Assembly (NCBI GenBank): GCA_965203485.1
Contig: OZ241892.1
Location: forward strand, 1,696,001-1,760,000
Length of the DNA stretch: 64,000 bases
Direction of reading: 5' to 3'
Origin: Longimicrobiales bacterium
GTDB lineage: Bacteria; Gemmatimonadota; Gemmatimonadetes; Longimicrobiales; Gaopeijiaceae
Shown: positions 27,182-55,359 of the stretch, piece by piece
Position numbering within the stretch: position 1 is the first letter of the stretch
Layout: each line of letters begins with the position of its first letter
Position numbers and translations under genes: made by a program
The notes under the pieces: generated by a model
What the model was told of the DNA's origin: nothing
Databases searched by the model: none
Seen by the model: only the letters and a program-made list of their open reading frames with translations

Positions 27182-29485
27182 CTAATCGTCGCGCCCCTCC
27201 ACCTGCCCCGCCTCCATGCCGCGCCTCGGCAACGTGATCAGGAACTCCGTGAACTCGTCCTCTTCCGTCTCGACGCGCAGCTCTCCGCCGTGCTCCTTGA
27301 CGATCTCGTGCGAAATCGAGAGGCCCAGGCCCGTCCCCTCGGTGCCCGTCTTGGTCGTGAAGAACGGATCGAAGATCTTCTCCACCAAGCTGTCGGGGAT
27401 GCCCGTGCCGTTGTCGCGGACCGAGATCAGCACGGAGTCGCCCAAGTCCTGCGTCTTGAGCCGCACCGCCGGCGAGTAGCCGGCCTCGTCCTTCTCCTTG
27501 CGCCGTGTGTCGGTGGCCTGGCAGCCGTTGGTGATGATGTTGAGGAACACGCGGCTCAGGTCCCGCGCGATCGCCACGACTTCGCCCGCCTCCTCGTCGA
27601 AGTCCTTCTCGATGGTCAGGTTGAACGTGGAGTCCGCCGCGCGCAGCCCGTGGTACGCCAGCTTGCCATACTCGTCGAGCATCAGGTTCACGTCCACGCT
27701 CTCGGCGACCCCCGCCTCGTCGCGCGAGTGCGCCAGCATTCCCTCGACGATCCGGTTGGCGCGCACGCCGTGCTCGCGCACCTTCTGCACGTTGGTCGAG
27801 AGGTCGCCCAAGATCTCGTCCAGGTACTCCTTGTCCAATCCGCCGTCCGAGGCGCCGTTTCCGCCGGATGGTCCGCCGGCTTCGCCCGGACCGGCTCCGT
27901 TGCCGTTTCCGCGCGCGGCATCGCCCTCCGCGCCGTCCCCGGCCTCGATTCCTAGTTCCTCGCGGAGCTCGTCGATCAGCTCCACGGACAGCGCCGCGAA
28001 GTTGTTGACGAAGTTCAGCGGATTCCTGATCTCGTGCGCTATTCCGGCGGTGAGCGTCCCCAGCGACGCCAGCTTCTCCTGGCTGATCACCTGCTGCTGG
28101 GTGCGCTTGAGGTCGTCCAGGGTCGTCTCGAGCTCGGCGTTCTTGGCCTGCACCTCGGCGTGGAGCTTCTCGACCAGGTTGAGGCGCTGCACTTCCACGG
28201 CGTGAGTGCGAAAGACCTCCAGCGCGCCCGCCATGTCCGTCACTTCGTCGTTGCCGGCGATCTTGACTTCCACCTCCAGGTCGCCCTGCGACATCTCGCG
28301 CATCGCGTCGGAGAGGTGGCGGACGCGCGCCAGAAGTCGTTCGCCGAAGAACTTCCAGCCGATCGCGAACGCCGCCAGCAACGCCAGTACGCTGACCCCC
28401 AGGACCAGCCACGTCCCCAGCGCGGTCAGCGCGCTGGAGTCGTCCGCCGCCGTCCGCGCCTGCACTGAGGCGTCGTCGACCAGCTGGCCCACCAGCGTGC
28501 CGAGATCGGCGGTCGTCTCCCGGTTTCGCGCCACGTACTGCTCGGAGCGCTCCAGCTCGTCCAGTTCGCGCGTCTTCGTGTCCTGCACGTCGCCGTACAG
28601 CTGGCGCAGGCGGTCGACCGACGGGCGGAGGCTGTCCGCGACAGCCGGGCGCATCGCGCCCAGAGTCTGCTCGATCCTGGTGAACTCGGTGTTGACGCGT
28701 TCCCGGTTGGACGCCAGCAGATCCCGGTCGTCTTCGGCCATCGCCTGGAACGTGAGCGTCCGGACCACGCTTTGAGCCGCGCGGAAGCCCAGCAAGCCGC
28801 GGTGGTGGTCCAGCTCCGCTTGCGCAGTGCGCTGAAACGCCGGGGCCGGACGCGTGTCGGAGCGCCGCCGCAAGCCGGTGTCGATGAAGAATTCCTGGTC
28901 GTCCAGCTCCTCTTCCAGAAAGCGCTCCGCGTTCGGGCCCACCCGGGCCAGATCGGCCTCGAGCTCGTTGAGCCGGCTGCGGTACTCGATCCGGTTCTGC
29001 ACGAGCGCCAGGATCTGGTTGATGTTCTCGACCAGGCTGCCCGACAGCGGAACGAGGGCCAAGCCGGCTTGGCCGCGGGCCTCGGCGCGAGCGATCTCGG
29101 CGATCGCGTTCTGCAGGAGTTCCTCTTCGTGCTCGACGTCCGCCTGCACGGCGTCGAGCTGCTCTTGGGTGACGGCGGCCAGCAACCTGGGCGACGCGCC
29201 CACGAGCTGGGCGCTCGAGCGCTCGACCTCGAACGCGGCGACGAGAGCCGGGATGTGCCGTTCCGTGATCTCGCCCTGACGCGCGTTGAGGTAGGCCATG
29301 ATCGCGAGCGCCAGCAGGCAACCGCCCAGCGTGAGGAACACGCCCCCGCCAAGGCCCACCACGATCTGGCTGCCGAGCCCGAAGCGTCCGCCCGTGGCCT
29401 TCTCGACCCGCGCCCCGAGCCGCGCGGGCAACCTCGCCATGATCCACTCGAACGCGGAGTGGACGCGGGTCTCCAGCGTCCTCAC
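27182..29485 (-). CDS. Membrane sensor histidine kinase (helical periplasmic domain, HAMP, HisKA, HATPase)
   Basis: Two TMs flanking a helical domain, GNDEVTDMA HAMP, QEKLASLGTLTAGIAHEIRNPLNF, DNGTGI, FFTTK, GTGLGL; GTGA overlap with the PBP stop. Confidence 0.9.
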   Translation of the reverse strand: MRTLETRVHSAFEWIMARLPARLGARVEKATGGRFGLGSQIVVGLGGGVFLTLGGCLLALAIMAYLNARQGEITERHIPALVAAFEVERSSAQLVGASPRLLAAVTQEQLDAVQADVEHEEELLQNAIAEIARAEARGQAGLALVPLSGSLVENINQILALVQNRIEYRSRLNELEADLARVGPNAERFLEEELDDQEFFIDTGLRRRSDTRPAPAFQRTAQAELDHHRGLLGFRAAQSVVRTLTFQAMAEDDRDLLASNRERVNTEFTRIEQTLGAMRPAVADSLRPSVDRLRQLYGDVQDTKTRELDELERSEQYVARNRETTADLGTLVGQLVDDASVQARTAADDSSALTALGTWLVLGVSVLALLAAFAIGWKFFGERLLARVRHLSDAMREMSQGDLEVEVKIAGNDEVTDMAGALEVFRTHAVEVQRLNLVEKLHAEVQAKNAELETTLDDLKRTQQQVISQEKLASLGTLTAGIAHEIRNPLNFVNNFAALSVELIDELREELGIEAGDGAEGDAARGNGNGAGPGEAGGPSGGNGASDGGLDKEYLDEILGDLSTNVQKVREHGVRANRIVEGMLAHSRDEAGVAESVDVNLMLDEYGKLAYHGLRAADSTFNLTIEKDFDEEAGEVVAIARDLSRVFLNIITNGCQATDTRRKEKDEAGYSPAVRLKTQDLGDSVLISVRDNGTGIPDSLVEKIFDPFFTTKTGTEGTGLGLSISHEIVKEHGGELRVETEEDEFTEFLITLPRRGMEAGQVEGRDD

Positions 29486-30675
29486 CGCGCCAATCGCCCC
29501 ACCGGCACGAAGCGCTCGTTGCGTATCTCGGTAAGGAACACCCTGTCCGAGCCCTGGTTGTCCCCTTCCGCGTACTCCACGACGAAGCCGCCCAAGTCGA
29601 TCGGCCCGGCCGTGTTCAGCGCCTCCAGGAATCCTTCCCGGGTCGGATTCGCCCCGGCTCGTTCGAGGCCCTCGACCGCGAGCCGGCCGGCCAAGTAGCC
29701 CTCCAGCGAGACGAAGCCCGGCGACGCGGCCCGGTCGACTGCGCGCAGGGCGGCGTGATACCGCCGAACCACGGGCACGCTCGCGTCGCGCGGGAACGGC
29801 ACCACCTGCGTCACGATCACGCCGTTTCCCTCGCCGCCGAGCGCGTTCAGCAACGCGTTGCTCCCCACGAACGAGATGTTCACGAAGACCGGCACGAAGC
29901 CGATGCGGCGCGACCACTTCACGAACTCGGCCACGGGCTGGTACGCGCCGATGATGATCACCGCATCCGGATCTCCGTCGCGCAGGCCCAGCAACGCGCG
30001 CTTCACGGCCCGCGTGTTGCGCATGTAGGACTCCTTGCCGACCAGCTCCATTCCGCGCGCGGCCAGCGCCAGCTCCACCCCGGTCAGGCCTGCGGCGCCG
30101 TAGCTGTCGGCCTGGTAGAGGACCGCGATGTCGCGAAAGCCCAAGTCGCGGGTCAGCCGCTCCACCATCTCGGCGGTTTCCTGGTAGTACGACGCCCGCA
30201 GATTGACCACATAGGGGCGTTCTTCCGACCGCAGGAACTCGGCGCCCGTGAAGGGGCCGATGTACGGCACCGACTCGGAGCTGGCGACCGGTTCGGCGGA
30301 AGAGGACGTCGGCGTGCCCACGGCGCCGATCAGCGCGAACACCCCCATTTCTATCAGCGCGCGCGTGTTCGTCGCGGCGGCCTCGGGCTCGTACCCGTCG
30401 TCGCGCGCGACCAGGCGAAGCTGCCGGCCGTGCACGCCCCCGGAGCGGTTCGCCTCTTCGAAGGCGGCGCGGATGCCCAACCGCATGTTCAGGCCCAGTT
30501 GCGCGGCGAGGCCCGTGAAGGCCGCCGACTGGCCGAACACGATCGAGTCCGGGTAGACGCCGGCGCTCTCGGGTTGGGCGCGGGCGGGCGCCGCGGCCAC
30601 CAGACAACCCAGCACTGCCAGTCCGCACCGGAACGCACCGGCCGCAGGCCGGCGTCCCCTCGCCGCGCTCCGCAC
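29482..30675 (-). CDS. Periplasmic binding protein, LivJ/branched-chain amino acid type
   Basis: Signal peptide ending APARA, GQSAAFTG, NRSGGVHGRQL, DDGYEP, GAVGTPT, NLRASY. Confidence 0.88.
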   Translation of the reverse strand: MRSAARGRRPAAGAFRCGLAVLGCLVAAAPARAQPESAGVYPDSIVFGQSAAFTGLAAQLGLNMRLGIRAAFEEANRSGGVHGRQLRLVARDDGYEPEAAATNTRALIEMGVFALIGAVGTPTSSSAEPVASSESVPYIGPFTGAEFLRSEERPYVVNLRASYYQETAEMVERLTRDLGFRDIAVLYQADSYGAAGLTGVELALAARGMELVGKESYMRNTRAVKRALLGLRDGDPDAVIIIGAYQPVAEFVKWSRRIGFVPVFVNISFVGSNALLNALGGEGNGVIVTQVVPFPRDASVPVVRRYHAALRAVDRAASPGFVSLEGYLAGRLAVEGLERAGANPTREGFLEALNTAGPIDLGGFVVEYAEGDNQGSDRVFLTEIRNERFVPVGRLAR

Positions 30676-30677
30676 CT

Positions 30678-31832
30678 CTATGTCTTCCCCAGGTAGCGCA
30701 ACGCCATGCAGGTGATGTCGTCCGACTGGGGCGCGTCCCCAGCGTGCTCCTGCACGGCCTGCACCACGTGGCGGCTCACGTCGGCGGCCTTCGACCCCGA
30801 GCACTCCGCAAGCACCTCGGCCAGCTCCCCCTCGCCGAATTCATCGCCGCCCGCGTTCATCGCTTCGGTGACCCCGTCGGTGTACAAGAAGAAGACGTCG
30901 CCCGGCTCCAGCTGCACGCTGCCGCCCGGAAACTCGAACTCGGGCATGACGCCCAGCACCAGGCCCGCATCGCTGCTGATCTGCTCGACCTCGCCCGACG
31001 CCTTGACAACGAACGGCAGGTTGTGGCCTCCGTTCGCGAAGTCCAGGCGTCCGCTCTCGGGGTCCAGGCTGGCGTAGAACAACGTGACGAACATCGACTC
31101 CTCGTTCGACTCCGACAGCAGGTCGTTGACCTCGGCCAAGCACCTCGCGGGATCGCTCTGGCCTATCGCGGTCCCCTTCATCAGCGTGCGGCTGACCATC
31201 ATGAAGAGCGCGGCGGGGACGCCCTTGCCCGACACGTCGGCCACGACCATGCCCAGGCGTTCGTTCTCCAGCTTGAAGAAGTCGTAGAAGTCGCCGCCGA
31301 CCTCGCGGGCGGGCGTCATCCACGCGTGGAGCTCGTAGCGCGGATCCGAGGGGAAGTCGGTGGGCAGGATCGACTCCTGCATCTTGGCCGCCACCCCCAG
31401 CTCCTGGCGCAGGGCAACCAGCTCGTCGCGCGACTCAAGCGCTTCGCGCATCACTTTGAGGTGCGCCAGCGTCTTGGTGATCGTCGTCTCGAGGTCCTCG
31501 AAGTCGATCGGCTTGGTGACGAAGTCGAACGCGCCGCGGTTCATCGCCGTGCGGATGTTCTTCATGTCGCCGTACGCGGTCACGATGACGGCGCGCAGGT
31601 CGACGCGCAGCTGGTTCAGCTGCTGCAACAGCGTGAGGCCGTCCATCTCGGGCATGTTGATGTCCGAGAGGACCATGTCGATGTTCTTGTGGGCCTCCAG
31701 CTGCTTGAGCGCCTCGACGCCGTTCTGCGCGAAGACGAGCTCGATGGCGCCGGAGCGGATTCGACGCCTGAACTTCTGCCGAAGAAGGAGCTCGAGATCG
31801 GGCTCGTCGTCGACGACAAGGATCTTCGGCAT
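30678..31832 (-). CDS. Response regulator fused to a SpoIIE/PP2C phosphatase (RsbU-like)
   Basis: REC: VVDDE, SDINMP, TAYG, KP; PP2C: EVGGDFYDF, VADVSGKG, YTDGVTEA, DDIT. Confidence 0.92.
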   Translation of the reverse strand: MPKILVVDDEPDLELLLRQKFRRRIRSGAIELVFAQNGVEALKQLEAHKNIDMVLSDINMPEMDGLTLLQQLNQLRVDLRAVIVTAYGDMKNIRTAMNRGAFDFVTKPIDFEDLETTITKTLAHLKVMREALESRDELVALRQELGVAAKMQESILPTDFPSDPRYELHAWMTPAREVGGDFYDFFKLENERLGMVVADVSGKGVPAALFMMVSRTLMKGTAIGQSDPARCLAEVNDLLSESNEESMFVTLFYASLDPESGRLDFANGGHNLPFVVKASGEVEQISSDAGLVLGVMPEFEFPGGSVQLEPGDVFFLYTDGVTEAMNAGGDEFGEGELAEVLAECSGSKAADVSRHVVQAVQEHAGDAPQSDDITCMALRYLGKT

Positions 31833-31968
31833 GTGCGGCCTGTGCTCCCCGTGCGTAGCCGACCCGAACATCTGCCAAGCGGGCCGGAGTTGGCGGGGCG
31901 GCCGCGTCGCGGGCGGACTCGGGAACCGCAACGACGGCGCCCCGGTGGTCGGATGGCGAACGCGGGCA

Positions 31969-31977
31969 AATCTAACA
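31969..31977 (-). promoter_or_regulatory. Putative extended -10 element for the REC-PP2C/PBP/HK operon
   Basis: Minus strand reads TG-T-TAGATT in an otherwise GC-rich spacer. Confidence 0.3.
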
Positions 31978-32039
31978 CGCCTGCTGCCCGGCCGCCGCGG
32001 CCGGGGCGGAGGGTCGCCGGAAACGCGCCGGCGCCACGC

Positions 32040-32068
32040 TGGACAGGCGCCCGGCGAGCACTTATGAT
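32040..32068 (+). promoter_or_regulatory. Putative sigma70-type promoter of glnA
   Basis: TGGACA (32040-45), 17 bp spacer, TATGAT (32063-68); each hexamer matches consensus 5/6. Confidence 0.55.
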
Positions 32069-32160
32069 TCGCGCGCTCGGCCGGCGTGCCGAGTCCCGAT
32101 CGTGCCGCCCCTGCCTGGGTTCGGCGCACCACCGTTCCCCCCGACCCGAAAGACCACCCG

Positions 32161-33570
32161 ATGGCAGATCGAGAAGCCGTTTTCAAGGCCGTCCGCGACG
32201 AGAAGGTCGAGTTCGTCGACCTTCGCTTCACCGACCCGCGCGGGCGGTGGCACCACGTGACCCTGACACCCGAGGTCTTCGACGAAGACGCGTTCGACGA
32301 CGGCGTGATGTTCGACGGTTCGTCCATCAACGGATGGAAGAGCATCGACCAGTCCGACATGGCCCTGTTCCCCGATCCCGCCACGTACGGCATCGATCCG
32401 TTCATGGGCGCGCGCACGCTGTACATCGTCTGCGACGTGCACGAGCCGACCACCGGCGAACGCTATTCCCGTTGCCCGCGCTGCACGGCGAAGGACGCGG
32501 AGGCGTACCTCAAGTACTCGGGCATCGGCGACACGGCCTACTTCGGCCCCGAGCCCGAGTTCTTCCTGTTCGACGACGTCCGCTTCGGCGTGCACGCGAA
32601 CAACACGTTCTTCCACCTCGACGACGGCGAAGGGCCCTACAACACGGGCGCGGCGCTCGCCGAAGGCAACAAGGGGCACCGCCCCCGCACCAAGGGCGGC
32701 TACTTTCCGTTGCCTCCCGTCGACTCGGCGCAGGACGTGCGGGGCGACATGCTGACCGCGTTGCGCGCCGCCGGCGTCGGCGTCGAGAAGCATCATCACG
32801 AAGTGGCGGCCAGCCAGCACGAACTCGGCATTCGCTTCGAGCCGCTCACCGTGATGGGCGACAAGTTGCAGGTCTACCGGTACGTCGTCCTGAACGTGGC
32901 CGCCCGCCACGGCAAGACCGCGACGTTCATGCCGAAGCCCGTCGTGGGAGACAACGGCTCGGGCATGCACACCAACCAGTCCCTCTGGAAGGACGGCGAG
33001 GGCATCTTCTCGGGGGCGGGGTACGCCGACCTCTCGGAAACCGCGCTCCACTACATCGGCGGCATCATGAAGCACGCCCGCGCGATCAACGCCTTCGCCA
33101 ACCCGAGCACCAACAGCTACAAGCGGCTGGTGCCCGGCTTCGAGGCGCCGGTCCTGCTGGCCTACTCCGCGCGCAACCGGTCCGCGTCCTGCCGCATCCC
33201 CCACGTCTCGTCGCCCAAGGCGCGCCGGGTGGAAGTGCGCTTCCCCGACGCCACCGCCAACCCCTACTTGGCGTTCTCGGCCATGCTGATGGCCGGACTG
33301 GACGGCATCGAGAACCGAATCGACCCCGGCCCGCCGATGGACAAGGACCTCTACGCGTTGCCGCCCGAGGAACTCAAGGACATTCCCACCGTCGCGACGT
33401 CGTTGCGCGAGGCGCTGGACGCGCTCGGCGCCGACTCCGAGTTCCTCACCCGGGGCGACGTGTTCACCAAGGACCAGATCGACGCGTACGTCGAACTCAA
33501 GATGGAGGACGTGGTCCGCTTCGAGCAGGCGCCGCACCCGGTGGAGTTCGACATGTACTTCTCTCCTTGA
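32161..33570 (+). CDS. glnA: Glutamine synthetase type I (GSI-beta, adenylylatable)
   Basis: [71 protein letters not shown] (adenylylation Tyr). Confidence 0.96.
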
Positions 33571-33670
33571 CGGGGACACGACGCTGACCCGGAGCGTTCT
33601 CGCCGCGGCCGCCGGCGCGCCGGGGTTCGGCGACCTGAGGGGGCACCGAGCGGACAACGCCGCAGCGGGC

Positions 33671-36598
33671 ATGGAGCGTCTGCGGAGCGCGGCCGCGCGC
33701 GTGAAGCGCGTCGCGCTCGCAGACGCGCTGGAGTCGGCGGAGGGCCGGGTCTTCTTCTCGTTTCTCTGCGGCAACAGCCCGTATCTGAGCCGCCTGCTGC
33801 TGCGCGATCTCGAATTCACCGAGACGCTGGTCCTCGAGGCGCCGGACGCCGTCGTTGCCGGCATCAAGCAAGAGCTGGAGGCCGCGGATCCAGCAATGCC
33901 GCGCGACGCGCTGATGACGTTCTTGCGCCGGCAGCGGAGCCGGGTCGCCGTGGTCGCGGCCGCCTACGACTGCTTCGGGGTCGCCGACGTGATGGCGTGC
34001 GCCAAGCTGCTCTCCGAGATGGCCGACCACGCGGTGCGCTTGGCGACGACTCACCTGCTGCGCGACCGCGTGGCCCGGGGCGAGCTGGCGTGCAACGCAG
34101 CGGAGGGCGAGACCGAGCCGGGGGACGCGGGCCGGCTCGGCTACTTCGTGCTGGCGATGGGCAAGCACGGCTCGGGCGAACTCAACTACTCCTCGGACAT
34201 CGACCTCATCGTCCTCTACGACCCCGAAGCGGTGCGCTACACGGGCCCCAAGTCGCTCAAGGACTGCTTCGTGCGGGTGACCCGCGATCTGGCCCGCATC
34301 CTCCAGGCGCGGACGGGCGACGGCTACGTGTTCCGCACCGACCTGCGCCTGCGCCCCGACGCGTCCTCGACGCCGCCCGCCATCACGGTGGACTTCGCGG
34401 CCGACTACTACGAGCGGCTCGGGCGCACGTGGGAGCGGGCCGCGATGATCAAGGCGCGGCCCGTGGCGGGCGACCTCGCCGCGGGCGCCGCGTTCCTGAA
34501 GCGGCTGTCTCCGTTCGTGTGGGAGGAGGGTCTCGACTTCACGTCCGTGGAGGAGATCCGCTCGATGAGCCAGCAGATCCACGACTTCCACGGGCACGGC
34601 GCCGTGCGGGCTGCGGGCCACGACGTCAAGCTGGGCCGCGGCGGCATCCGCGAGATCGAGTTCTTCGTTCACATGCACCAGCTCGCCTACGGCGGACGCA
34701 ACCGGCGGCTGCGGGACCCCGGCATCCTCTCGATGCTACAAGTCCTGGAGGACGAGAACCACGTCCTGCCGCGCGAAGCCGCGGACCTGGGCGAGGCGTA
34801 CGTCCTGCTCCGCCGCGTCGAGCACCGGTTGCAGATGGTCAACGACGACCAGACCCAAAAGCTGCCCGAAAGCAACGACGGCATGGAGCACGTCGCCGCC
34901 TTCATGGGCTTGGACTCGGCGGAAGCGCTTGCGAATCTCGTCGAGAGCTCCGCCACCGGCGCGCACGCCATCTACCGCACTCGCTTCAACGTGCCGGAGA
35001 CCGAGCAGGACATCACGGCGGCCGTGCTGGAGGGACCCGAAGGCAGCGAAGAGGCCGTGGCCAGGCTTCAGGCGGCGGGCTTCGAGCGCGCGCTCACGGC
35101 GAGCGAGACGTTCCGCGGATGGGCGGCCGGCGTGCACGCCTCCACGCGCTCCGAGCGGGCGCGCGCCATCGTGCGCGAGATCCTGCACGAGATCATCGCG
35201 GCGCTGGGCAGGACCCCGGATCCGGATCGCGCGCTGACCCGAATGAACCGGTTCCTGCAGGCGTTGCCCGAGGACGTCTCCTTCTTCTCGATGCTGCGCG
35301 CCAACACGTGGCTGCTGAACTTGATCGCGGTCGTGATGGGCGGCGCACCGCGCATCGCCGACGCCCTGGGCGCCAACCCGAGGCTGCTCCAGGCCGTGCT
35401 CGACCCCGCCTTCTTCCTGACGATGCCCGACAAGGCCGCGCTGGCCGAGGAACTGGCCGAGCGCCTGGAGGGCGTGGACGACCCGGAGGACCGGCTCGCG
35501 CGCACCTCGAGCTGGGCGAGCGACCGCCGCTTCCAAGCCGGCGTGCAGACCCTCCAGAACTTGGTCACCGTGGACGAGGCGTCCGAAGCCCTGACCGACA
35601 TCGCCGACGTGGCCACGTCCACCATCTTCGCCGACGTGCTCTCGGCGCTGGAGCGCGAGCACGGCACGGTGCCCGGCAAGGGGTGCGCCGTGCTGGGCCT
35701 GGGCAAGCTGGGCGCCCGCGAGATGACCTTCGAGTCCGACCTGGACCTGATCTTCTTCGCCGACGTCCCGGACGAGAGTCTGATGTCGTCCGGCCCGCGC
35801 CCCATCGAAGCCAAACGCTACTACGCGCGCGCCGCCCAGCAGGTAATTGCCGCCCTGCAGAGCCGCTCCGCCGCTTCTGGCAAGCTCTACGAGGTCGACA
35901 TGCGGCTTCGTCCGTCCGGCAAGAGCGGACCGCTGGTGACGACGCTGGACGCGTTTCGGATCTACCACGAGGGCCTCGCCGACACGTGGGAGGAGATGTC
36001 GCTGACGCGCTCGAGGATCGTTTGCGGCACGCCGGGCGCCCGCGACGCCGTGGCCGAGCAGATCGAAGCCGTCTTGACGCGCCCACGGGACGCCGCCGAA
36101 CTCCGCCGGGACGTCGCCCGAATGCGCGAGCGCGTGGCCGCGGAGTACCCCTCGGACGATCCGTTCGAGGTGAAGTACGTGCGCGGCGGCTTGGTGGACT
36201 TGGAGTTCGTCGCGCAGTATCTTCAGCTGTTGCACGCCCACGCGCGTCCCGCGGTCCTCGTCGCCGGAACGGCCAAGTGCTTCGAAGCGCTGGAGGAGGC
36301 GGGCGTGTTGCCGCGGCGCGAAGCGGACGTTGCGGGATCGGACGCCACGCAGAACAACGCCGGGGCCGAGGCCGGATTGCTCGCCGAGGCAGTCCGCTTC
36401 CAGCGCGCGGTCCAGGCGCTGTTGCGACTGGCGTGGAGCGAAAGCGCCCCGGTCGGCGCCGCGCCGGAGACGTTGCAGAGGAAGCTGGCCAATGCGCTCG
36501 AACACGATACCTTCGAAGAGCTGGACGCGCGGTTGCGCGACGTGCAGGCGAAGGCGTTCGACAGGTTTCGCGCCCATCTCGGCGCCGGCGCGGCCTAG
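33671..36598 (+). CDS. glnE: Bifunctional glutamine synthetase adenylyltransferase/deadenylylase
   Basis: Two nucleotidyltransferase motifs, MGKHGSGELNYSSDIDL and LGKLGAREMTFESDLDL; DLRLRP, WERAA, KLGRGGIREIEF, RGGLVDLEF. Confidence 0.94.
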   Translation: MERLRSAAARVKRVALADALESAEGRVFFSFLCGNSPYLSRLLLRDLEFTETLVLEAPDAVVAGIKQELEAADPAMPRDALMTFLRRQRSRVAVVAAAYDCFGVADVMACAKLLSEMADHAVRLATTHLLRDRVARGELACNAAEGETEPGDAGRLGYFVLAMGKHGSGELNYSSDIDLIVLYDPEAVRYTGPKSLKDCFVRVTRDLARILQARTGDGYVFRTDLRLRPDASSTPPAITVDFAADYYERLGRTWERAAMIKARPVAGDLAAGAAFLKRLSPFVWEEGLDFTSVEEIRSMSQQIHDFHGHGAVRAAGHDVKLGRGGIREIEFFVHMHQLAYGGRNRRLRDPGILSMLQVLEDENHVLPREAADLGEAYVLLRRVEHRLQMVNDDQTQKLPESNDGMEHVAAFMGLDSAEALANLVESSATGAHAIYRTRFNVPETEQDITAAVLEGPEGSEEAVARLQAAGFERALTASETFRGWAAGVHASTRSERARAIVREILHEIIAALGRTPDPDRALTRMNRFLQALPEDVSFFSMLRANTWLLNLIAVVMGGAPRIADALGANPRLLQAVLDPAFFLTMPDKAALAEELAERLEGVDDPEDRLARTSSWASDRRFQAGVQTLQNLVTVDEASEALTDIADVATSTIFADVLSALEREHGTVPGKGCAVLGLGKLGAREMTFESDLDLIFFADVPDESLMSSGPRPIEAKRYYARAAQQVIAALQSRSAASGKLYEVDMRLRPSGKSGPLVTTLDAFRIYHEGLADTWEEMSLTRSRIVCGTPGARDAVAEQIEAVLTRPRDAAELRRDVARMRERVAAEYPSDDPFEVKYVRGGLVDLEFVAQYLQLLHAHARPAVLVAGTAKCFEALEEAGVLPRREADVAGSDATQNNAGAEAGLLAEAVRFQRAVQALLRLAWSESAPVGAAPETLQRKLANALEHDTFEELDARLRDVQAKAFDRFRAHLGAGAA

Positions 36599-36636: not shown

Positions 36637-37083
36637 ATGGACGCTTCGCTCGAGGTAAGCGTAAAGGCCAGCTCCTCGGAGCCACGGCGGGTGGCGGAGC
36701 TGTTCGAGCGCTTCGGCGAAGAGCACGATGTTCCTCCGCCGGTCCTGATGCGCATGGAACTCGCGCTCGACGAAGTGCTGACCAACGTCGTCAGCTACGC
36801 GTTCCCCGGGGACGCCGGAGACGCCGCCATCACGGTGGCCATGCAGATCCGCGAGGGTCGCGTTACAATATGCGTCGAAGACAACGGACCGCCCTTCGAC
36901 CCGCTCACGGAGGCGCCCGAGCCGGACGTGGACCTGCCGGCCGAGGAACGCGAGATCGGCGGACTCGGCGTGCACCTTGCCAAGACGTTCGTCCAGACAT
37001 TGCGCTACGAGCGCGTGGACGGGCGCAATCGCCTCACCCTAGAACAGCCCCTGGACGGCCAACCGGAGAACCCTACCTCATGA
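36637..37083 (+). CDS. RsbW/SpoIIAB-like anti-sigma factor Ser kinase (HATPase_c_2)
   Basis: LALDEVLTNVVSYA, EDNGPPFDP, REIGGLGVHL. Confidence 0.88.
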   Translation: MDASLEVSVKASSSEPRRVAELFERFGEEHDVPPPVLMRMELALDEVLTNVVSYAFPGDAGDAAITVAMQIREGRVTICVEDNGPPFDPLTEAPEPDVDLPAEEREIGGLGVHLAKTFVQTLRYERVDGRNRLTLEQPLDGQPENPTS

Positions 37084-37415
37084 AAGTCACGACGAGCACC
37101 AGTGGAACCGCGACCGTCGCCGCAGTAGAGGGCCGCGTCGATTCCGCCAACGCCAAGGACCTGGACCAGGAACTCGGCGCCATCATCGATTCGGGCGAAA
37201 GCCGCCTGGTCGTGGACTGCAGCGACCTCAGGTACATCAGCAGCGCCGGGCTCCGCGCGCTCCTCGTGGCAATCAAGCGGACCAACAAGGAAGGCGGCGG
37301 CGTCGCCATGTGCCAAGTGCCCGACCACATCCGCGAGGTCCTCGAGGTGAGCGGCTTCACCCGTCTCACGAAGGTCTTCGGCACGATAGAGGAAGCCGCC
37401 GCCAGCTTCGACTGA
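37080..37415 (+). CDS. RsbV/SpoIIAA-like STAS anti-anti-sigma factor
   Basis: GRVDSANA, DCSDLRYISSAGLRAL (phospho-Ser motif), EVLEVSGF; ATGA overlap. Confidence 0.9.
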   Translation: MKVTTSTSGTATVAAVEGRVDSANAKDLDQELGAIIDSGESRLVVDCSDLRYISSAGLRALLVAIKRTNKEGGGVAMCQVPDHIREVLEVSGFTRLTKVFGTIEEAAASFD

Positions 37416-37425: not shown

Positions 37426-37464
37426 GGGGGCGAGGCGGAATCCCGGAGATCCCCCGTCGCCCCC
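37426..37464. terminator. GC-rich hairpin between the convergent STAS and porin genes
   Basis: GGGGGCGA...TCGCCCCC inverted repeat; no U-tract. Confidence 0.25.
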
Positions 37465-37633: not shown

Positions 37634-38707
37634 CTAGAAGAACATGAACGCCTGGACCTTGAAGGACCACTCCGTCGTGTCTTCGATGGTGCGGTAAAGG
37701 TCCATGTTGGCCGCAATTCCGTTCCATCCGGCCAAGTAGACCATGAAACCGGGAGTGAAGACCATGCCGCTGGCGTCTTCGCCGTCCCCGTCCTCGGTGC
37801 TGGCCCAGCTCACGCGCAACAGGGGCTCGACCGCGTCCACGCGGCTGCCGGCGAGCGGAAGATGCCAAGCGCCCATGGCCTGGAACGCCGTGAAGGCCGC
37901 GTCCTCGGCGACCCTCCAGTTGCGGCCGCGCAACAGGTTCACGAGCAGATGGGGCCCGGCCTGCCGCCATCCGCCGGACTCGAACTCCAGCCCGGTCGCC
38001 GGCAGCCAGCAGGTCTCCCCGTCCTCGCAGTGGGTCTCGTCCATGGCGGCGTACGCGGAGAACCGGCTTTTTTCGCCCAGGAACACGGAGACGCGGCCCG
38101 ACGCCGACTTCTCGTTGTTGACGTCCTTCTTGCCGATGCCCTCTCCGTTGGTCAGCGTCATCCGGTAGCCCAAGCGTCCGCCGTCGGCGCCGCCGAACCG
38201 GCCGGTGGCCAGCAGGCCGGGCTCGTAGGCGTCGAGGCCCAGCGAGCCGGTCATCTGCCCGAACGAGCACACTCCTCCGACGCCCGGGCACTCGTTCACG
38301 CCGGTGACCCGCCCGTCCCGCTCGATCACGGGCAACTGCGAGTTGGCGGCCAGCCAGAAGTACGACATCGCGCGCTTGAACTGGCCGATCTGCACCTGGA
38401 ACGCGCGCGAAGGCGAGAGCTGCAGCCACGCTTCCAACACGTTGGAGCCCTGCGCGTCGAACTGCACGCGGCCGGACACCAAGTCGTTGAGCCGCCCGTC
38501 CATCGTCACCCAGGCCCGCCGGATGAAGAACGACGACGCCACGTCGTCGCGGCCGGTTTGCTCGTACTGCACCTGGACCCTGCCGCCGAGCGTGACGGTG
38601 GAGCCGTTGCGCGCGGAGATGTCCTGCGCCTCCAGCGAACCGGCGAACCCGGCGGCAACCGCCGCTCCCAGTCCAAAGGCGAGCCTGCCAAGCCGGCTCG
38701 ATGTCAT
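37634..38707 (-). CDS. Outer membrane porin (OprO/OprP-like)
   Basis: Signal peptide, LGGRVQVQY, FFIRRA, GQFK, amphipathic strands, C-terminal Phe (VQAFMFF). Confidence 0.72.
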   Translation of the reverse strand: MTSSRLGRLAFGLGAAVAAGFAGSLEAQDISARNGSTVTLGGRVQVQYEQTGRDDVASSFFIRRAWVTMDGRLNDLVSGRVQFDAQGSNVLEAWLQLSPSRAFQVQIGQFKRAMSYFWLAANSQLPVIERDGRVTGVNECPGVGGVCSFGQMTGSLGLDAYEPGLLATGRFGGADGGRLGYRMTLTNGEGIGKKDVNNEKSASGRVSVFLGEKSRFSAYAAMDETHCEDGETCWLPATGLEFESGGWRQAGPHLLVNLLRGRNWRVAEDAAFTAFQAMGAWHLPLAGSRVDAVEPLLRVSWASTEDGDGEDASGMVFTPGFMVYLAGWNGIAANMDLYRTIEDTTEWSFKVQAFMFF

Positions 38708-38791
38708 GTGAGTGCTCCGTTGTTGCGAGAAGCGGTGTCGGCGCGACCCCGCCGGTTCCGGCGCGCTGCGGGGCGCGACGAGACGCCCGTC

Positions 38792-38819
38792 TTGCGACGG
38801 CCCGAGAGATCACTACCTT
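38792..38819 (+). promoter_or_regulatory. Possible sigma70-type promoter of amtB
   Basis: TTGCGA, 16 bp spacer, TACCTT. Confidence 0.25.
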
Positions 38820-38886
38820 GTCTCCCGGCATCCGTCACGTGGCGGCAAGGCTCACCTTCACAGCGGGACGCGGGGAGACCATCGGA

Positions 38887-40287
38887 ATGACAGGCAACCT
38901 AGCGAGCAAGGCGGCGTTCGGCAACGCCGTCCGCGGACGAACCATCCTAGCCCTTCTCTTCGGCGGGGCGGCGCTGCTCTTCCCGGCCGCCCTCGGGGCC
39001 CAGGACGAGACCAGTTTCGTGCTCAACACGTTCTCGTTCCTGGTGTGGGGCGCGCTCGTGATGTGGATGTGCGCCGGCTTCACGATGCTGGAGTCCGGAT
39101 CGGTGCGTTCCAAGAACGCCTCGATGATCTGCATGAAGAACATCGGGCTCTACTCGATCGCGGGCATCGCCTACTACGTGATCGGATACAACCTGATGTA
39201 CGTGGACGTGTCGGGCTTCATCGGCTCGTTCAGCATCTTCTACGGCCCCTCGCCGGCCGAGACGGCCCTGGTGGCCGGCGACGCGGCCGCCACTGCCGAC
39301 GTGACCGGCAACGGCTACGCCGTCATGTCCGATTGGTTCTTCCAGATGGTGTTCGTGGCGACGACCGCGTCGATCGTGTCCGGCGCGTTGGCGGAGCGCG
39401 TGCGCCTTTGGTCGTTCTTCGCCTTCACCGCCCTGCTCACCGCGGCCATCTATCCCGTCGTGGGGGCGTGGACGTGGGGCGGAGGCTGGCTCGCCGAGCG
39501 GGGCTTCAGCGACTTCGCCGGCTCGACGATCGTCCATTCCACGGGCGGATGGGCGGCCCTGGCGGGCATCCTGGTCGTCGGACCGCGCTGGGGGAAGTTT
39601 CGCAAGGACGGGAGCGTCCAGCCCACGCCGCCCTCCAACATTCCGGCGGTCACGCTGGGCGTCTTCATCCTGTGGCTGGGCTGGTTCGCGTTCAACGGCG
39701 GATCGGTCCTCGCGCTGGGCGACGCCGCCTCCGCCGTCAACATGAGCAACGTGATCGTGAACACGAACTTGGCGGCGGCCGCAGGCGTGCTCGCCGCGTT
39801 GCTCGTGTCGCGGCCGATTCTCGGCCGGCTCGATCTGTTCGCCGGCTTGAACGGCGCCATTGCCGGCTTGGTGTCGATCACGGCCGGCCCCGACATCGGC
39901 TCGGGCTGGCGCGCGATGCTGATCGGCGCGGCGGGCGCGATCATCTGCACGTTCGGCCTCAAGTTCCTGGAGAGCAGGAAGCTGGACGACGTGGTCGGGG
40001 CCGTGCCCGCGCACCTCTTCGCGGGCGTTTGGGGCACCATCGCGGTCTGCTTCGGCGGCGACGCCGACTTCGTGGAGCAACTGATCGGCGTCGCGGCCGT
40101 GGGCGCGTTCGTGTTCTTCGTGTCGTGGCTCGTGTGGATTGGACTGGACCGGGTGATCGGCGTGCGCGTCGGCCGCAAGATCGAGGAGATCGGGCAGGAC
40201 GCGGCCGAGCTGGGGATCGACGCGTATCCGGAGTTCGTCCTCATGGTCGACCCGGACGAGGGGAGCGACTACCGCGACGCGGACTGA
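38887..40287 (+). CDS. amtB: Ammonium transporter
   Basis: GFTMLESG, WFFQMVF, DFAGSTIVH, GWFAFNGGS, LDDVVGAVPAH (twin His retained). Confidence 0.95.
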   Translation: MTGNLASKAAFGNAVRGRTILALLFGGAALLFPAALGAQDETSFVLNTFSFLVWGALVMWMCAGFTMLESGSVRSKNASMICMKNIGLYSIAGIAYYVIGYNLMYVDVSGFIGSFSIFYGPSPAETALVAGDAAATADVTGNGYAVMSDWFFQMVFVATTASIVSGALAERVRLWSFFAFTALLTAAIYPVVGAWTWGGGWLAERGFSDFAGSTIVHSTGGWAALAGILVVGPRWGKFRKDGSVQPTPPSNIPAVTLGVFILWLGWFAFNGGSVLALGDAASAVNMSNVIVNTNLAAAAGVLAALLVSRPILGRLDLFAGLNGAIAGLVSITAGPDIGSGWRAMLIGAAGAIICTFGLKFLESRKLDDVVGAVPAHLFAGVWGTIAVCFGGDADFVEQLIGVAAVGAFVFFVSWLVWIGLDRVIGVRVGRKIEEIGQDAAELGIDAYPEFVLMVDPDEGSDYRDAD

Positions 40288-40324
40288 GGCACCCGGCGTT
40301 CCCCTCGCCGGAGCCCGGCCGGGC

Positions 40325-41833
40325 ATGGCCGCGCCGACGCCTCCCGTCGCAGGATCGGGGTCGTTCGCGGGCTACGAGCTGGACGCGGCCTTCCACGACG
40401 AGCTCTTCGAGCCCGGCGGGGAGGCGCGTCCGGCCGCGCGTCTGCTCGCCGAGGCCCTGGCGAAGGCGGAGCCGTCCGAACTCCGCATGGTGCAGGACCT
40501 GGTCAACCGGCGCTTCCTGCACGAAGGTATCACCTTCACCGTGCTGGGCGCGGACGAAGTCAGCGAGCAGATCATCCCGATCGACTGCGTGCCGCGCGTG
40601 CTCGCCGCCGACGAATGGGCGTTGGTCGAACGCGGCCTCAAGCAGCGCCTGCGGGCGCTCAACCTGTTCCTGGAGGACATCTACCACCGGGGCCAGTCGA
40701 TTCGCGACAAGGTGGTGCCCGCCGACTTGGCGCTGGGCTGCCCGCAGTACCGGACGGAGATGCGGGGGCTCAAGGTGCCTCACGGCGTGTACGTCGCGGT
40801 GTGCGGGACCGACGTCGTGCGGACGCCGGACGGATTCGCGGTTCTGGAGGACAATCTGCGGGTGCCGTCGGGCGTGTCCTACATGTTGGCTTGCCGCACG
40901 GCCATGAAGGGGGCGTTCCCCGGGCTCTACAGGGAGCACGGGGTGCGCGAGGTGGCCGAGTACCCGGAGCGGCTGCACGCGACGCTGTCGTCGCTGGGGA
41001 TGTCGGGCGAAGAACCGCGGATCGCGCTACTCACGCCCGGGCGCTACAACTCCGCCTACTACGAGCACGCGTTCCTGGCCGGCGAGACCGGAATCGACCT
41101 CGTCGAGGGACGCGACCTGGTGGTGCGCGACGGCGTCCTGTACGCGCGCGCCGTCTCGGGACTGCAGCGGATCGACATCCTCTACCGCCGAATCGACGAC
41201 GACTTCCTGGACCCCGTCGTCTTCCGCCCCGATTCGCTGCTGGGCGTCCCCGGCCTGTTCCACGCCTACCGGGCGGGCAACTTGACGCTGGCCAACGCGC
41301 CCGGCACGGGGGTGGCGGACGACAAGAGCATCTACGCCTGCGTGCCCAGCATCATCCGCTACTTCCTGGACGAGGAGCCCATCCTCCACAACGTGGAGAC
41401 GCACCTGTGCCGCGAGCCCGGCGCGTTGTCCTATGCGCTGAACAACATGGACGAGCTGGTCTTCAAGGAGGTGGGCGGCTCGGGCGGCTACGGGATGCTG
41501 ATCGGGCCGCACGCGTCCAAGCAGGAGAGGTCCGACTACGCCGACCGCGTGCGGGCCGACCCGGCGAACTTCATAGCGCAACCCGTGCTTGCGCTGTCGC
41601 GCGCCGGCTGCTTCGTGGACGGACGCATCGAGCCCAGGCACGTGGATCTTCGGCCGTTCGTGTTGCAGGGACGCCGCGACCTGCACGTCGTGCCCGGCGG
41701 GCTTTGCCGGGTCGCGCTGCGGCGCGGCAGCCTCGTGGTGAACTCCAGCCAGGGCGGCGGATGCAAGGACCTGTGGGTGCTGGCCGGGCGGGATCCAGGC
41801 GGCGCGGCGGCCGAGCGATGCTCGCGACCGTAG
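40325..41833 (+). CDS. Circularly permuted type 2 ATP-grasp protein
   Basis: VLEDNLRVPSGVSY, YRRIDDDFLDP, NAPGTGVADDK, SGGYGM, HVDLRPF, VNSSQGGGCKD. Confidence 0.93.
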   Translation: MAAPTPPVAGSGSFAGYELDAAFHDELFEPGGEARPAARLLAEALAKAEPSELRMVQDLVNRRFLHEGITFTVLGADEVSEQIIPIDCVPRVLAADEWALVERGLKQRLRALNLFLEDIYHRGQSIRDKVVPADLALGCPQYRTEMRGLKVPHGVYVAVCGTDVVRTPDGFAVLEDNLRVPSGVSYMLACRTAMKGAFPGLYREHGVREVAEYPERLHATLSSLGMSGEEPRIALLTPGRYNSAYYEHAFLAGETGIDLVEGRDLVVRDGVLYARAVSGLQRIDILYRRIDDDFLDPVVFRPDSLLGVPGLFHAYRAGNLTLANAPGTGVADDKSIYACVPSIIRYFLDEEPILHNVETHLCREPGALSYALNNMDELVFKEVGGSGGYGMLIGPHASKQERSDYADRVRADPANFIAQPVLALSRAGCFVDGRIEPRHVDLRPFVLQGRRDLHVVPGGLCRVALRRGSLVVNSSQGGGCKDLWVLAGRDPGGAAAERCSRP

Positions 41834-42792
41834 CCGCCGACTTCTACTGGCTCGGCCGTTACGCCGAACGCGCCGAGCAGACGGCCCGGTTGCTGCGCCA
41901 CCAGCTCACGCGGCTTCCCGACACGCCGGCCGTCGAGCTGGCGGAGGGCTGGCGGGCCGTCTACCGAAGCCTCGGCCAGGCCGCGCCCGACGCGCCCAGA
42001 GGCGCCGACGAGGCCGAGGCGTTCCTGCAGGCCGACGCCTACACGCTGGCCGGCGGCCTGATGGAGGAGGCGGCCAATCCGGGATCGGTGCTGGCGTGCT
42101 GGGGCGCGGCACGCGAGAACGGCCGACGCGTGCGCCCGCACCTGCCGCTTCGGATGTGGACGAGCCTCAACCAAGGGTTCTTGTGGTTGCAGGACAGCGA
42201 CTTCGCCAAGGCTTGGGCGGGGGCGCCGGCCGCATTGGCCAGCGAGGCGATCGACCGCTTGCGGTTCTTCGCGGGCGTGGTCGAGGCGATGATGCCCCGC
42301 GACCACGCGTGGCGCTTCCTGGAGCTCGGTCGCTTCGTCGAGCGGCTGCAGCGGCAAGTGGCGTTGCTGGACACGTGGAGGGGAGGCGGAGAGCCGCAGG
42401 GCGCGGCTCGGCTGGCGTGGACGGACCTGTTGCGCGTGTGCGGCGCCTACGAATTCTTCTGCCGCACGCACTCGATGACCGCCGACCGGGACGCCGCCCT
42501 CGCCTTTCTCGTGCGCAACCCCGCGCTTCCGCGATCGCTGCGCTTCGCTGTTCAGCGCATCGGAGCCCTGCTGGACGGCATCGATCCCGGCGGCGGGCAG
42601 TACCCGCTGGCCGCGCCGCACCGCGCGACGCTGCGCATCGGAGCCGCATTGGAGGTCGCAACGGGCGGCGGCGACGGACAACCCGAGTGGGAGTCGGTCC
42701 TTCGGTCGCTGGCCGGCCAGAGCCAAGCGCTTCACGACCTCGTGATCGCAACGTACGTGGACTACTCGGCCGCCGGGGGGGCTCCGTCGTGA
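41818..42792 (+). CDS. Alpha-E domain protein (DUF403)
   Basis: Two ER motifs, WLGRYAERAE and LGRFVER; ARENGRRVR; PRS. Confidence 0.9.
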   Translation: MLATVAADFYWLGRYAERAEQTARLLRHQLTRLPDTPAVELAEGWRAVYRSLGQAAPDAPRGADEAEAFLQADAYTLAGGLMEEAANPGSVLACWGAARENGRRVRPHLPLRMWTSLNQGFLWLQDSDFAKAWAGAPAALASEAIDRLRFFAGVVEAMMPRDHAWRFLELGRFVERLQRQVALLDTWRGGGEPQGAARLAWTDLLRVCGAYEFFCRTHSMTADRDAALAFLVRNPALPRSLRFAVQRIGALLDGIDPGGGQYPLAAPHRATLRIGAALEVATGGGDGQPEWESVLRSLAGQSQALHDLVIATYVDYSAAGGAPS

Positions 42793-43688
42793 CCGTCCGC
42801 TACTCGATCGAGCACGTGATGGAGTTCCGTTACAGCGCACCCGTTCATCTCTCCGTGATGACGCTCCACCTGCGCCCGGCGCAGAACCGGCGCCAAGTCC
42901 TGCGCGACTTCTCGATCGACACCGACCCCACCGGGCCGCTGTTCGCGTTCGTGGACCCGTTCGGCAACGCCGGCCACTTCTTCGACCGGCCCGCCGAGCA
43001 CGACGCCCTGCTGGTCAAGGCGCGCTCCCGGGTGGACGCGGTCGCCGCCGAGCCGGTGCCGTCCCGGCTGGGGACCGGCTCCTGGCCGGCGCTGAGGCAC
43101 GCCGCTCGCGACCCGGACCTTTGGCCCATGCTCAGTGCGAGCCGCTTCGCGCGGCCGTCGCCGACGCTTCACGGCTTCCTGGAGGCCCGGAAGCTCGCGC
43201 CCGCGGACGATCCGCTGGCGACGGCTCACGAACTCTGCTCCAAGCTGCACTCGGCGTTCGAGTACGCCCCCGGCGCCACCGACGCGCACTCTCCCATCGA
43301 GCGGATCCTGGAGAGCGGCCGGGGCGTGTGCCAGGACTACGCGCACGTCATGGCCGCGGTCGCGCGGCTGTGGGGGATTCCTTGCCGCTACGTGTCCGGC
43401 TACCTGGGTCCGCCTGCGGGAGACGCATGCCGAAGGGAGGGCGTCGCCAGCGGCGAGAGCCACGCCTGGGTGGAATGCTGGTTCCCGGAGCTGGGATGGA
43501 CGGCCTTCGATCCCACCAACGACGCCGTGGGCGACGAGCGGCACCTTCGCGTGGCGGTGGGCCGGGACTACGCCGACGTGCCTCCGGCAAGGGGCACCTA
43601 CCGGGGTACGGCCGAGTCGGCGCTGAAGACGGACGTCTCCGTGTCGCGGCACCTCTGGGACCCGGCCCGAGATCACGGCGCCGACTGA
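42789..43688 (+). CDS. Transglutaminase-like protein
   Basis: GVCQDYAH, RYVSGY, SHAWVE, FDPTN, AVGRDYADVPP; GTGA overlap. Confidence 0.92.
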   Translation: MTVRYSIEHVMEFRYSAPVHLSVMTLHLRPAQNRRQVLRDFSIDTDPTGPLFAFVDPFGNAGHFFDRPAEHDALLVKARSRVDAVAAEPVPSRLGTGSWPALRHAARDPDLWPMLSASRFARPSPTLHGFLEARKLAPADDPLATAHELCSKLHSAFEYAPGATDAHSPIERILESGRGVCQDYAHVMAAVARLWGIPCRYVSGYLGPPAGDACRREGVASGESHAWVECWFPELGWTAFDPTNDAVGDERHLRVAVGRDYADVPPARGTYRGTAESALKTDVSVSRHLWDPARDHGAD

Positions 43689-43809
43689 ACGGAACAACGC
43701 CGCCGGCCTGGCGAGGCTCTTCGCGCCGGCCTGTTGATTCGGCGCCTGCGACGGCACCATATTTGGATGTTCGCGCCAACGCAACCCGACACCTCCCAAG
43801 GAAGCACCA

Positions 43810-44526
43810 GTGACCAGACTCGCCATGCGCACCGTCTTGTTCTCGTCCGTCGCCGCCTCGACGGTCTTCGCCGCCTCGCCTGCCCAAGCCCAGGTCTCGA
43901 TGGGCGCCGACATCGTCAGCCGTTACGTCTGGCGTGGGCTCGACTTCGGCGACTCCTGGTCGATTCAGCCGTCGGTCGCCTTCGCGGGCGGCGGCTTCGA
44001 GGTGGGAGCATGGGCGTCCTACGGCGTGCAGGGCATGAACGAGAACGACCTCTATCTCACCTACACCGCTCAAACGGAGTCGGGGGCCGCCTTCACGCTC
44101 GGACTGAACGACTACTACTTCCCCACGGCCATCGACAGTCCCAAGTTCTTCGACGGCGACTCGCACGCGATCGAGCCCTTCGCGTCGTTCAGCGGGCCCG
44201 AGGGCTTTCCGGTCGAACTGCTCGTGGCGGTGGCGTACAACCCGCCCCCGGCCTCGGACACTCTGGGCAGCCGCGAGAACGTCGGCTACATCGAGTTCGC
44301 AGTTCCGTTTTCGAGGGGAGGCGCGGATCTGTCCGTGCACGTCGGCGGCGTCACGAACGGAAGCCGCTTGTACTCGACAAGCGGCGCCGGAATCACCAAC
44401 CTCGGCTTGTCGGCGACCAAGGCGATCGGAACGGGCGACTGGACTGTTCCGACGACCTTGAGCTACGTCCTCAATCCGGACTCGGAACAGTCGTTTCTCG
44501 TCTTCGGCGTCAGTCTGTCGCCATAG
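43810..44526 (+). CDS. Putative outer membrane beta-barrel (TorF/Gcw_chp-like)
   Basis: Signal peptide ending AQA; ADIVSRYVWRG, SIQPS, GAWAS, ENDLY; alternating strands. Confidence 0.7.
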   Translation: MTRLAMRTVLFSSVAASTVFAASPAQAQVSMGADIVSRYVWRGLDFGDSWSIQPSVAFAGGGFEVGAWASYGVQGMNENDLYLTYTAQTESGAAFTLGLNDYYFPTAIDSPKFFDGDSHAIEPFASFSGPEGFPVELLVAVAYNPPPASDTLGSRENVGYIEFAVPFSRGGADLSVHVGGVTNGSRLYSTSGAGITNLGLSATKAIGTGDWTVPTTLSYVLNPDSEQSFLVFGVSLSP

Positions 44527-55358: not shown

Positions 55359-55359
55359 G

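Follow-up and report, generated by a model that had tools for sequence, protein, structure and literature searches.

PII proteins are a near-universal hub of nitrogen control, and the RsbK-RsbY-RsbV-RsbW system of Bacillus cereus is a variant of the RsbU/RsbV/RsbW partner switch. The glutamine synthetase (GS) adenylyltransferase GlnE is reported to need PII for adenylylation in Rhodospirillum (bioRxiv 10.64898/2026.09.02.748916) and to work without it in Streptomyces, mycobacteria, and Herbaspirillum (PMC3612183; bioRxiv 10.64898/2026.09.02.748916). A triad of genes coding for a circularly permuted (CP) ATP-grasp ligase, an alpha-E protein, and a transglutaminase is reported to be NtrC dependent, together with amtB, in Burkholderia and Pseudomonas (PMC5491218, PMC7214821) and to correlate with urea genes in marine metagenomes; its peptide-ligase activity is a prediction (PMC3597751). 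Here, we analyzed a window of 64,000 nucleotides from a bacterium (GenBank assembly GCA_965203485.1, contig OZ241892.1, positions 1,696,001 to 1,760,000) whose nearest named relatives are Longimicrobiales, Gemmatimonadota. At positions 27182 to 44526, this window carries a block of 13 genes in which a five-gene partner-switch cassette stands next to genes for GS, GlnE, an ammonium transporter (Amt), and the triad. Comparative genomics leads us to a probability of about 75% that the cassette serves nitrogen control.

Nitrogen genes beside the cassette

A scan for the REC-PP2C phosphatase of the cassette returned at least 585 loci, the best 80 of which were kept; their neighbors were assigned by gene calling and clustering, and the loci are kin rather than independent samples. 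All five signaling genes (LivJ-type binding protein, TorS-like kinase, REC-PP2C, RsbW, and STAS) were present in 58 of the 80 loci, most commonly in the order STAS, REC-PP2C, RsbW, binding protein, kinase. Beyond these five, only amt (28 loci), alpha-E (15), CP-ATP-grasp (15), and transglutaminase (9) recurred in more than 8 loci; an NCS2 permease, DUF502, glnE, and GPP34 each recurred in 5 to 6. No sigma factor or DNA-binding regulator was recurrent across the 80 loci.

Overall, a nitrogen gene adjoined the cassette in 34 of the 80 loci, which were scattered over the cassette tree and spanned seven phyla (Gemmatimonadota, Latescibacterota, Chloroflexota, Pseudomonadota, Actinomycetota, Acidobacteriota, and Binatota). 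With 1 to 5 amt copies per genome, chance would place amt near the cassette in approximately 1.1 of the 80 loci, compared to the 28 to 29 observed. Furthermore, the nitrogen genes that joined the cassette are not orthologous: marine-type amt was found at 19 loci and other Amt types at 11, and two GlnE clades were represented. An earlier note on this DNA, made from the sequence alone, had proposed a link between switch and nitrogen genes, and these data support it; the neighborhood is not unique to this genome, nor are its genes unlinked in relatives. The cassette tree (FastTree, 66 rows, with 15 of the 80 loci left out for want of a long kinase) mixes phyla, indicating much transfer. A metagenome scan gave only 6 loci, 3 of them with the arrangement of the block in part.

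Within the family, the kinase was present in 13 of 121 genomes. The marine amt (about 500 bits) was found in 12 of these 13 cassette genomes versus 3 of the 108 others, and the CP-ATP-grasp gene in 9 versus 5. Conversely, PII was found in 2 of the 13 versus 49 of the 108 (absent from 11 and 59, respectively). Seven of the 121 genomes, from four genera, harbor a block-type glnA (at least 78% identity) and glnE inside or beside the cassette; all seven are single contigs, 95 to 98% complete, and PII was found in none of them. Among 22 relatives with an ordinary full-length glnA (45 to 54% identity), 20 have PII, ten of them, by coordinates, as amt-PII-glnA. Outside the genus, glnE was not found among the first 41 relatives. 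PII is kept in the Latescibacterota genome G042, where the same glnA-glnE pair (83% and 69% identity) and the remaining parts are distributed over three sites. The glnA-glnE pair inside the cassette in PII-less genomes of the family is a new element.

Some of the rarer neighbors have counterparts elsewhere in the source genome (G000). An NCS2 permease with an extra C-terminal domain (G000:C1:2276193-2277908, L157) is 53% identical to the permease adjoining the cassette in 6 of the 80 loci. Another STAS gene of this clade precedes a gene of the GPP34 (Golgi phosphoprotein 3) family (G000:C1:3311392-3312581, L158). GPP34 genes are neighbors of the cassette in several loci, and fusions of STAS with GPP34 are also listed (P0138, P0145, P0146). 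Two GPP34-cytochrome P450 fusions of about 660 amino acids lie at G000:C1:2128419-2130401 and 1943171-1945171 (L155, L156).

Architecture of the block

The source genome is a single contig and is 95% complete. All 13 open reading frames of the block are intact, without internal stops, and searches with Pfam and NCBIfam profiles found the stated domains in every protein, confirming the contiguity, order, orientation, and domains given in the earlier note. One frame had to be revised: the histidine kinase is present, but the 1,148-amino-acid frame listed for it was wrong, and the gene spans 27182 to 29485 (767 amino acids, minus strand).

The left operon, on the minus strand, is tightly coupled. 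The REC-PP2C gene (30678 to 31832, 384 amino acids) is followed after 2 bp by the gene for a LivJ-type (Peripla_BP_6) periplasmic binding protein (29482 to 30675), which has no ABC transporter genes adjoining and overlaps the membrane histidine kinase gene by 4 nucleotides. By Pfam, the kinase carries a TorS-like periplasmic sensor, HAMP, HisKA, and HATPase domains and no receiver. Its GTG start overlaps the binding-protein stop; the next ATG, at 29440, gives a 752-amino-acid form, which was used for the kinase analyses.

The catalytic residues of the switch are conserved among 66 to 80 homologues per protein. His469 of the kinase was kept in 66 of 67 homologues, and in REC-PP2C, Asp57, Lys107, Asp199, and Asp371-Asp372 were found in 80 of 80 and Asp319 in 79. 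The metal-binding aspartates typical of PP2C phosphatases are among the residues kept. The RsbW-like kinase has the N, G1, and G2 boxes, with Glu46, Asn50, Asp82, and the GGxG box kept in 66 of 66, and scores below the equivalog cut-off for RsbW proper. Ser54, the phospho-serine of STAS, was kept in 67 of 67. The TorS model TIGR02956 aligned to residues 40 to 457 of the kinase at 132 bits (cut-off, 676.5). The structural model of the kinase had a predicted local distance difference test (pLDDT) score of 92.8, and its top six Foldseek matches were TorS sensor domains (template modeling score of 0.84 by target). Coupling of the kinase and binding-protein genes (the 4-nucleotide overlap; 67 to 70 of the 80 loci) suggests that the binding protein may dock on the sensor domain, and by analogy with TorT-TorS, it is likely the receptor for the TorS-like kinase.

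The nearest solved structure to the binding protein is 4kv7 (38% identity). Its solved neighbors bind leucine, aromatic acids, or fatty acids, and the nearest structural entries pointed to no single ligand. Thr86, Thr108, and Tyr210 (mature alignment numbering) are invariant and presumably match the amino-acid-binding positions of LivJ. The ligand could perhaps be an amino acid, an amide, or another small nitrogen compound. The binding protein has a paralogue (38% identity), which stands in line with a 260-amino-acid sCache protein and an MFS transporter at G000:C1:1518947-1522219 (L159), and similar genes occur near the cassette in L037, L040, and L048. The genome also encodes another, unrelated set of PP2C, RsbW, and STAS at G000:C1:2320973-2322881 (L161), beside which no nitrogen genes were seen; cross-talk is possible.

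Opposite to the left operon, on the plus strand, run glnA, glnE, rsbW, and the STAS gene. The first, glnA (32161 to 33570), codes for a type I GS (TIGR00653 over its cut-off) with the adenylylation-site Tyr398 found by motif check. After 100 bp, glnE (33671 to 36598) encodes a bifunctional GS adenylyltransferase of the PRK14108 type (889 bits; cut-off, 724) with both nucleotidyltransferase motifs intact, at residues 164 to 178 and 678 to 692. A 38-bp gap separates it from the gene for the RsbW-like serine kinase (HATPase_c_2; 36637 to 37083, 148 amino acids), whose stop overlaps by 4 nucleotides the start of the gene for the STAS anti-anti-sigma-type protein (37080 to 37415, 111 amino acids; Pfam, and TIGR00377 over its cut-off). 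A type III GS is encoded elsewhere in the genome, at 230570 to 232756, and glutamate synthase gave no match in any of the three genomes of the genus (G000, G001, and G002), although it was recovered in 14 of 14 controls. The block thus adds a second, regulated GS to a cell in which no GS-glutamate synthase cycle was detected.

Beyond STAS, a Porin O/P-like outer membrane protein (37634 to 38707, minus strand; Pfam E value, 7e-6) adjoins the cassette in 3 of the 80 loci, all in close relatives. The plus-strand genes that follow start with amt (38887 to 40287). Its product, called AmtB in the earlier note, is indeed an ammonium transporter, but its profile match is to the marine subtype (TIGR03644, 519.6 bits; cut-off, 514) and not to AmtB proper (113 bits against the AmtB equivalog; cut-off, 657). 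The twin-histidine pore motif (His217, His376) is invariant in 25 rows, and the clade carries a conserved YPEFVLM and an acidic tail. The triad then forms one operon in its usual order, with CP-ATP-grasp at 40325 to 41833, alpha-E at 41818 to 42792, and the transglutaminase-like protein at 42789 to 43688 (all by Pfam). The last gene, an outer membrane beta-barrel (43810 to 44526), matches the TorF family weakly (TIGR02001; E value, 1.8e-9; 37.5 bits, under the 47.15 cut-off), and we take it to resemble NlmA of the nlmA-glnK-amtB operon. As the earlier note had it, the block ends 29 bp from a tRNA-Pro(TGG) gene (44556 to 44629, minus strand), its right border, which lies at the same place in G001, G002, G122, and G167.

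The arrangement is not due to chance, because it is syntenic in both other genomes of the genus (G001 and G002) and in G122 and G167. In G122, about 11 kb separate the porin gene from amt and divide the block in two (L141-L142); in G166, it is rearranged and has lost glnA-glnE (L139-L140); and in G120, only the five signaling genes are kept at the same site. A clean insertion at tRNA-Pro was considered but not borne out: the GC content (0.68 to 0.71 versus 0.72) and the GC at third codon positions are ordinary, and four cassette-free relatives that have both flanking genes offer no empty site, as these genes are about 0.85 to 0.97 Mb apart or on separate contigs.

Upstream of glnA, a sigma-70-type promoter-like site (TGGACA-17-TATGAT, 32040 to 32068, plus strand) was found once where 0.7 would be expected, which is not significant alone; by eye, 4 of 8 relatives show the same hexamer pair and spacing ahead of glnA. 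No sigma-54 promoter or common operator was conserved upstream of glnA, amt, porin, barrel, or REC-PP2C; these regions have sigma-70-type hexamers and no common alternative motif. Elsewhere in the window, a run of membrane-protein genes at 48155 to 55839 looks to us like an Mrp/Mnh cation-proton antiporter cluster, and ARAGORN placed a tRNA-SeC at 59561 to 59657.

Candidate output of the switch and alternatives

We propose that a periplasmic ligand would bind the LivJ-type protein, which would signal via the TorS-like kinase to the REC-PP2C phosphatase, and that the phosphatase would set the phosphorylation of STAS Ser54 against RsbW; family knowledge suggests both this phosphorelay and the STAS/RsbW/PP2C cycle. 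STAS would then act post-translationally; its most likely target would be the ammonium channel, where it would stand in for GlnK. Unphosphorylated STAS might close the channel when organic nitrogen is present, the sign being a guess. GlnE most likely would sense glutamine on its own, and any effect of the switch on it would be additional. We hold a post-translational output, most likely on the channel, as a tentative assignment at somewhat less than even odds.

Gene order and modeling bear on the channel. In 8 of 10 loci measured, amt is directly followed by STAS, 45 to 201 bp apart, and in G088, amt stands between RsbW and two STAS genes. When two Amt copies were modeled together with STAS, the predicted complex scored 0.43 (best control, 0.01), with runs agreeing in at least 92% of contacts and a partner pLDDT of at least 82. 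In calibration, 18 of 157 solved complexes scored in this range, as did 2 of 215 mismatches (both of those that passed). The model hints, weakly, that STAS may bind Amt. PII-STAS (P0123) and transglutaminase-STAS (P0122) fusions were set aside, as a normal STAS start follows a nonconserved linker and both look like read-through of neighboring genes.

The earlier note had stated that glnB/glnK, glnD, ntrC, and sigma genes are missing from the block, and this was borne out. Genome-wide, a profile search for PII gave no match in the source genome (13 of 14 control genomes were positive), and tblastn with 11 PII queries gave one scrap only (E = 0.002). Of five genomes searched, none had glnD, NtrC over the cut-off, or SigB/F/G over the TIGR02980 cut-off; three sigma-54 activators fell below cut-off in the source genome. 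Three PII genes lying between a classical amt and STAS are degenerate (L048:15312-15668, L066:9006-9323, L083:9247-9507): all three lack the conserved C-terminal TG..GDGKIF region, presumably the nucleotide-binding stretch. In G074 and G085, the amt adjoining a degenerate PII gene has an internal stop.

Several observations count against the proposed role of the cassette and its action on the channel. No nitrogen neighbor was seen within about 10 kb in 46 of the 80 loci (some on short contigs). In a survey of 50 genomes chosen from these loci, favoring long contigs and nitrogen-linked loci, 36 had a PII match (32 at an E value of ≤1e-12), and the cassette thus does not need PII loss. The seven PII-less glnA-glnE genomes are close kin and probably represent one acquisition. 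Since GlnE is PII independent in Streptomyces, mycobacteria, and Herbaspirillum, PII loss needs no substitute for GlnE. The marine amt, with the same tail, occurs without the cassette kinase in G123, G171, and G174. The Amt-STAS score falls in a range that is more often wrong than right, and a weak search of 120 listed long STAS homologues found neither an Amt-STAS nor a GlnE-STAS fusion. Finally, a nitrogen-free ligand would also be compatible with the solved neighbors of the binding protein, among which are binders of leucine, aromatic acids, and fatty acids.

The best-surviving alternative is transcriptional: on the classical model, RsbW would sequester a sigma factor encoded elsewhere (RpoD-like or extracytoplasmic function [ECF]) until STAS set it free. 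The sequences of RsbW and STAS are canonical, and Anabaena NfsS/NfsR is reported to bind SigC and SigE and to govern heterocyst and nitrogen-fixation genes (PMC13712970). The source genome has 17 sigma-70-family matches, four of them RpoD-like, and any of the 17 could be the target of RsbW, a further point against our proposal. However, no sigma gene recurs in the 80 loci and the cassette moves among seven or more phyla without one; with no SigB/F/G over the cut-off in the five genomes and the upstream regions as described, we find this explanation rather unlikely.

A second alternative is that cassette and nitrogen genes merely travel together among bacteria of one habitat, or that the cassette borrows a nitrogen-responsive promoter, and that it controls something else. 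The 46 loci without a nitrogen neighbor, the mixing of phyla in the cassette tree, the same parts split over three places in G042, and the recurrence of NCS2 permease, GPP34 proteins, and DUF502 in 5 to 6 loci would all agree with this. On the other hand, unrelated nitrogen genes (three Amt types, two GlnE clades, and the triad) joined the cassette separately and the nitrogen link outlasts many rearrangements, which makes such cargo an unlikely explanation.

Direct action of STAS or RsbW on GlnE, setting GS adenylylation in place of PII, is quite improbable: glnE adjoins the cassette in only 5 of the 80 loci, 27 of the 50 cassette genomes gave no GlnE match, PII is kept in the three alphaproteobacterial genomes that have glnE at the cassette, and PII-independent GlnE proteins are described (PMC3612183; bioRxiv 10.64898/2026.09.02.748916), even though glnE, rsbW, and STAS are consecutive in the block, PII is found in none of the seven genomes with block-type glnA-glnE, and the Rhodospirillum GlnE, which needs PII, can be set beside our PRK14108-type protein (bioRxiv 10.64898/2026.09.02.748916). 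The five glnE loci fall in two clades and include three Alphaproteobacteria, with glnE inside the cassette in L087; these alphaproteobacterial GlnE proteins group apart from others of their class (Shimodaira-Hasegawa-like approximate likelihood ratio test, 99) in a quick tree from which 3 short rows were dropped and in which five genes were entered twice. For control of GS or GlnE by the switch, the support is confined to gene order.

Returning to nitrogen control by the cassette, a far-reaching form of it would be a mobile phospho-serine switch that takes over the jobs of PII. STAS would gate Amt directly and here affect GlnE, nitrogen uptake and GS activity would be tuned to an external ligand sensed in the periplasm rather than to internal 2-oxoglutarate and glutamine, and PII would decay or be lost where the switch enters. 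We regard this full version as doubtful. The earlier note had spoken of replacing or overlaying PII: replacement is plausible in this lineage only, where PII is found in 0 of 7 genomes, and does not fit the cassette generally, for which overlay is the general case. Its premise that GlnE and AmtB are normally governed by PII, with amtB beside glnK, also needs narrowing, given the several bacteria with PII-independent GlnE (PMC3612183; bioRxiv 10.64898/2026.09.02.748916) and an Amt subtype that need not pair with glnK.

Comparison with known systems

For the question of how bacteria without PII operate an Amt channel together with GS and GlnE, the locus offers a small, testable candidate: five proteins that are soluble or easily trimmed, with three potential targets. 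The cassette occurs in uncultured bacteria of at least seven phyla. Through this locus, sigma-less partner switches lacking known targets would gain an output, and the unexplained CP-ATP-grasp/alpha-E/transglutaminase genes would be placed in a regulatory setting. In agreement with the earlier note, no described system with this wiring, that is, no partner switch joined to Amt, GS, or GlnE, was found in the literature searched, which did not extend to subscription papers and supplements.

Like RsbK/RsbY/RsbV/RsbW, the cassette pairs a histidine kinase with a REC-PP2C protein, a phospho-serine STAS, and an RsbW-like kinase, with all residues intact. Unlike the canonical SigB/SigF pathway, it has no sigma gene of its own and no SigB/F/G in the genome, and unlike the Rsb systems, it takes its input from a binding protein and a TorS-like sensor and has nitrogen genes as neighbors. 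The sensor fold, encoded with an orphan periplasmic binding protein, resembles TorT-TorS (PDB 3O1H, 3O1I, 3O1J, 3I9Y, 3I9W). In contrast to that system, the kinase has neither receiver nor HPt, the binding protein is LivJ-type, and the response regulator is a phosphatase instead of TorR. Trimethylamine N-oxide reductase genes, TorR, and hybrid-kinase domains were not found among the block domains or the neighbors in the 80 loci, and this is not a Tor system.

Other partner switches show that parts of the proposal have precedents. NfsS/NfsR of Anabaena PCC 7120 ties such a switch to nitrogen physiology in a Gram-negative bacterium, although by the SigC/SigE route and in heterocyst development; the accessible part of that report states no Amt, GS, or GlnE link and no binding-protein/kinase input (PMC13712970). 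SypE/SypA, BtrU/V/W, and RbaV are reported to use the STAS phospho-state as output without a dedicated sigma factor, with biofilm, secretion, or motility as outputs (PMC8256260, PMC12826045). In a term search, the words nitrogen, ammonium, and glutamine were absent from the accessible text of a review of STAS-only proteins.

As for the nitrogen genes, the three families and usual order of the triad are those of the described CP-ATP-grasp/alpha-E/transglutaminase system (DUF404/407, DUF403). Unlike the NtrC-dependent triad reported in Burkholderia (PMC5491218), that of the block lies downstream of amt in a genome in which no NtrC was found over the cut-off. Similarly, the type I GS with its adenylylation tyrosine, the complete GlnE, and the Amt channel are those of the PII-GlnD-GlnE-GS and GlnK-AmtB systems, whereas PII and GlnD were not found, the Amt is of the marine subtype, and the amt-PII-glnA locus of relatives is replaced by a cassette-linked set. 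Overall, each part of this locus is known, and its wiring is new to the literature searched.

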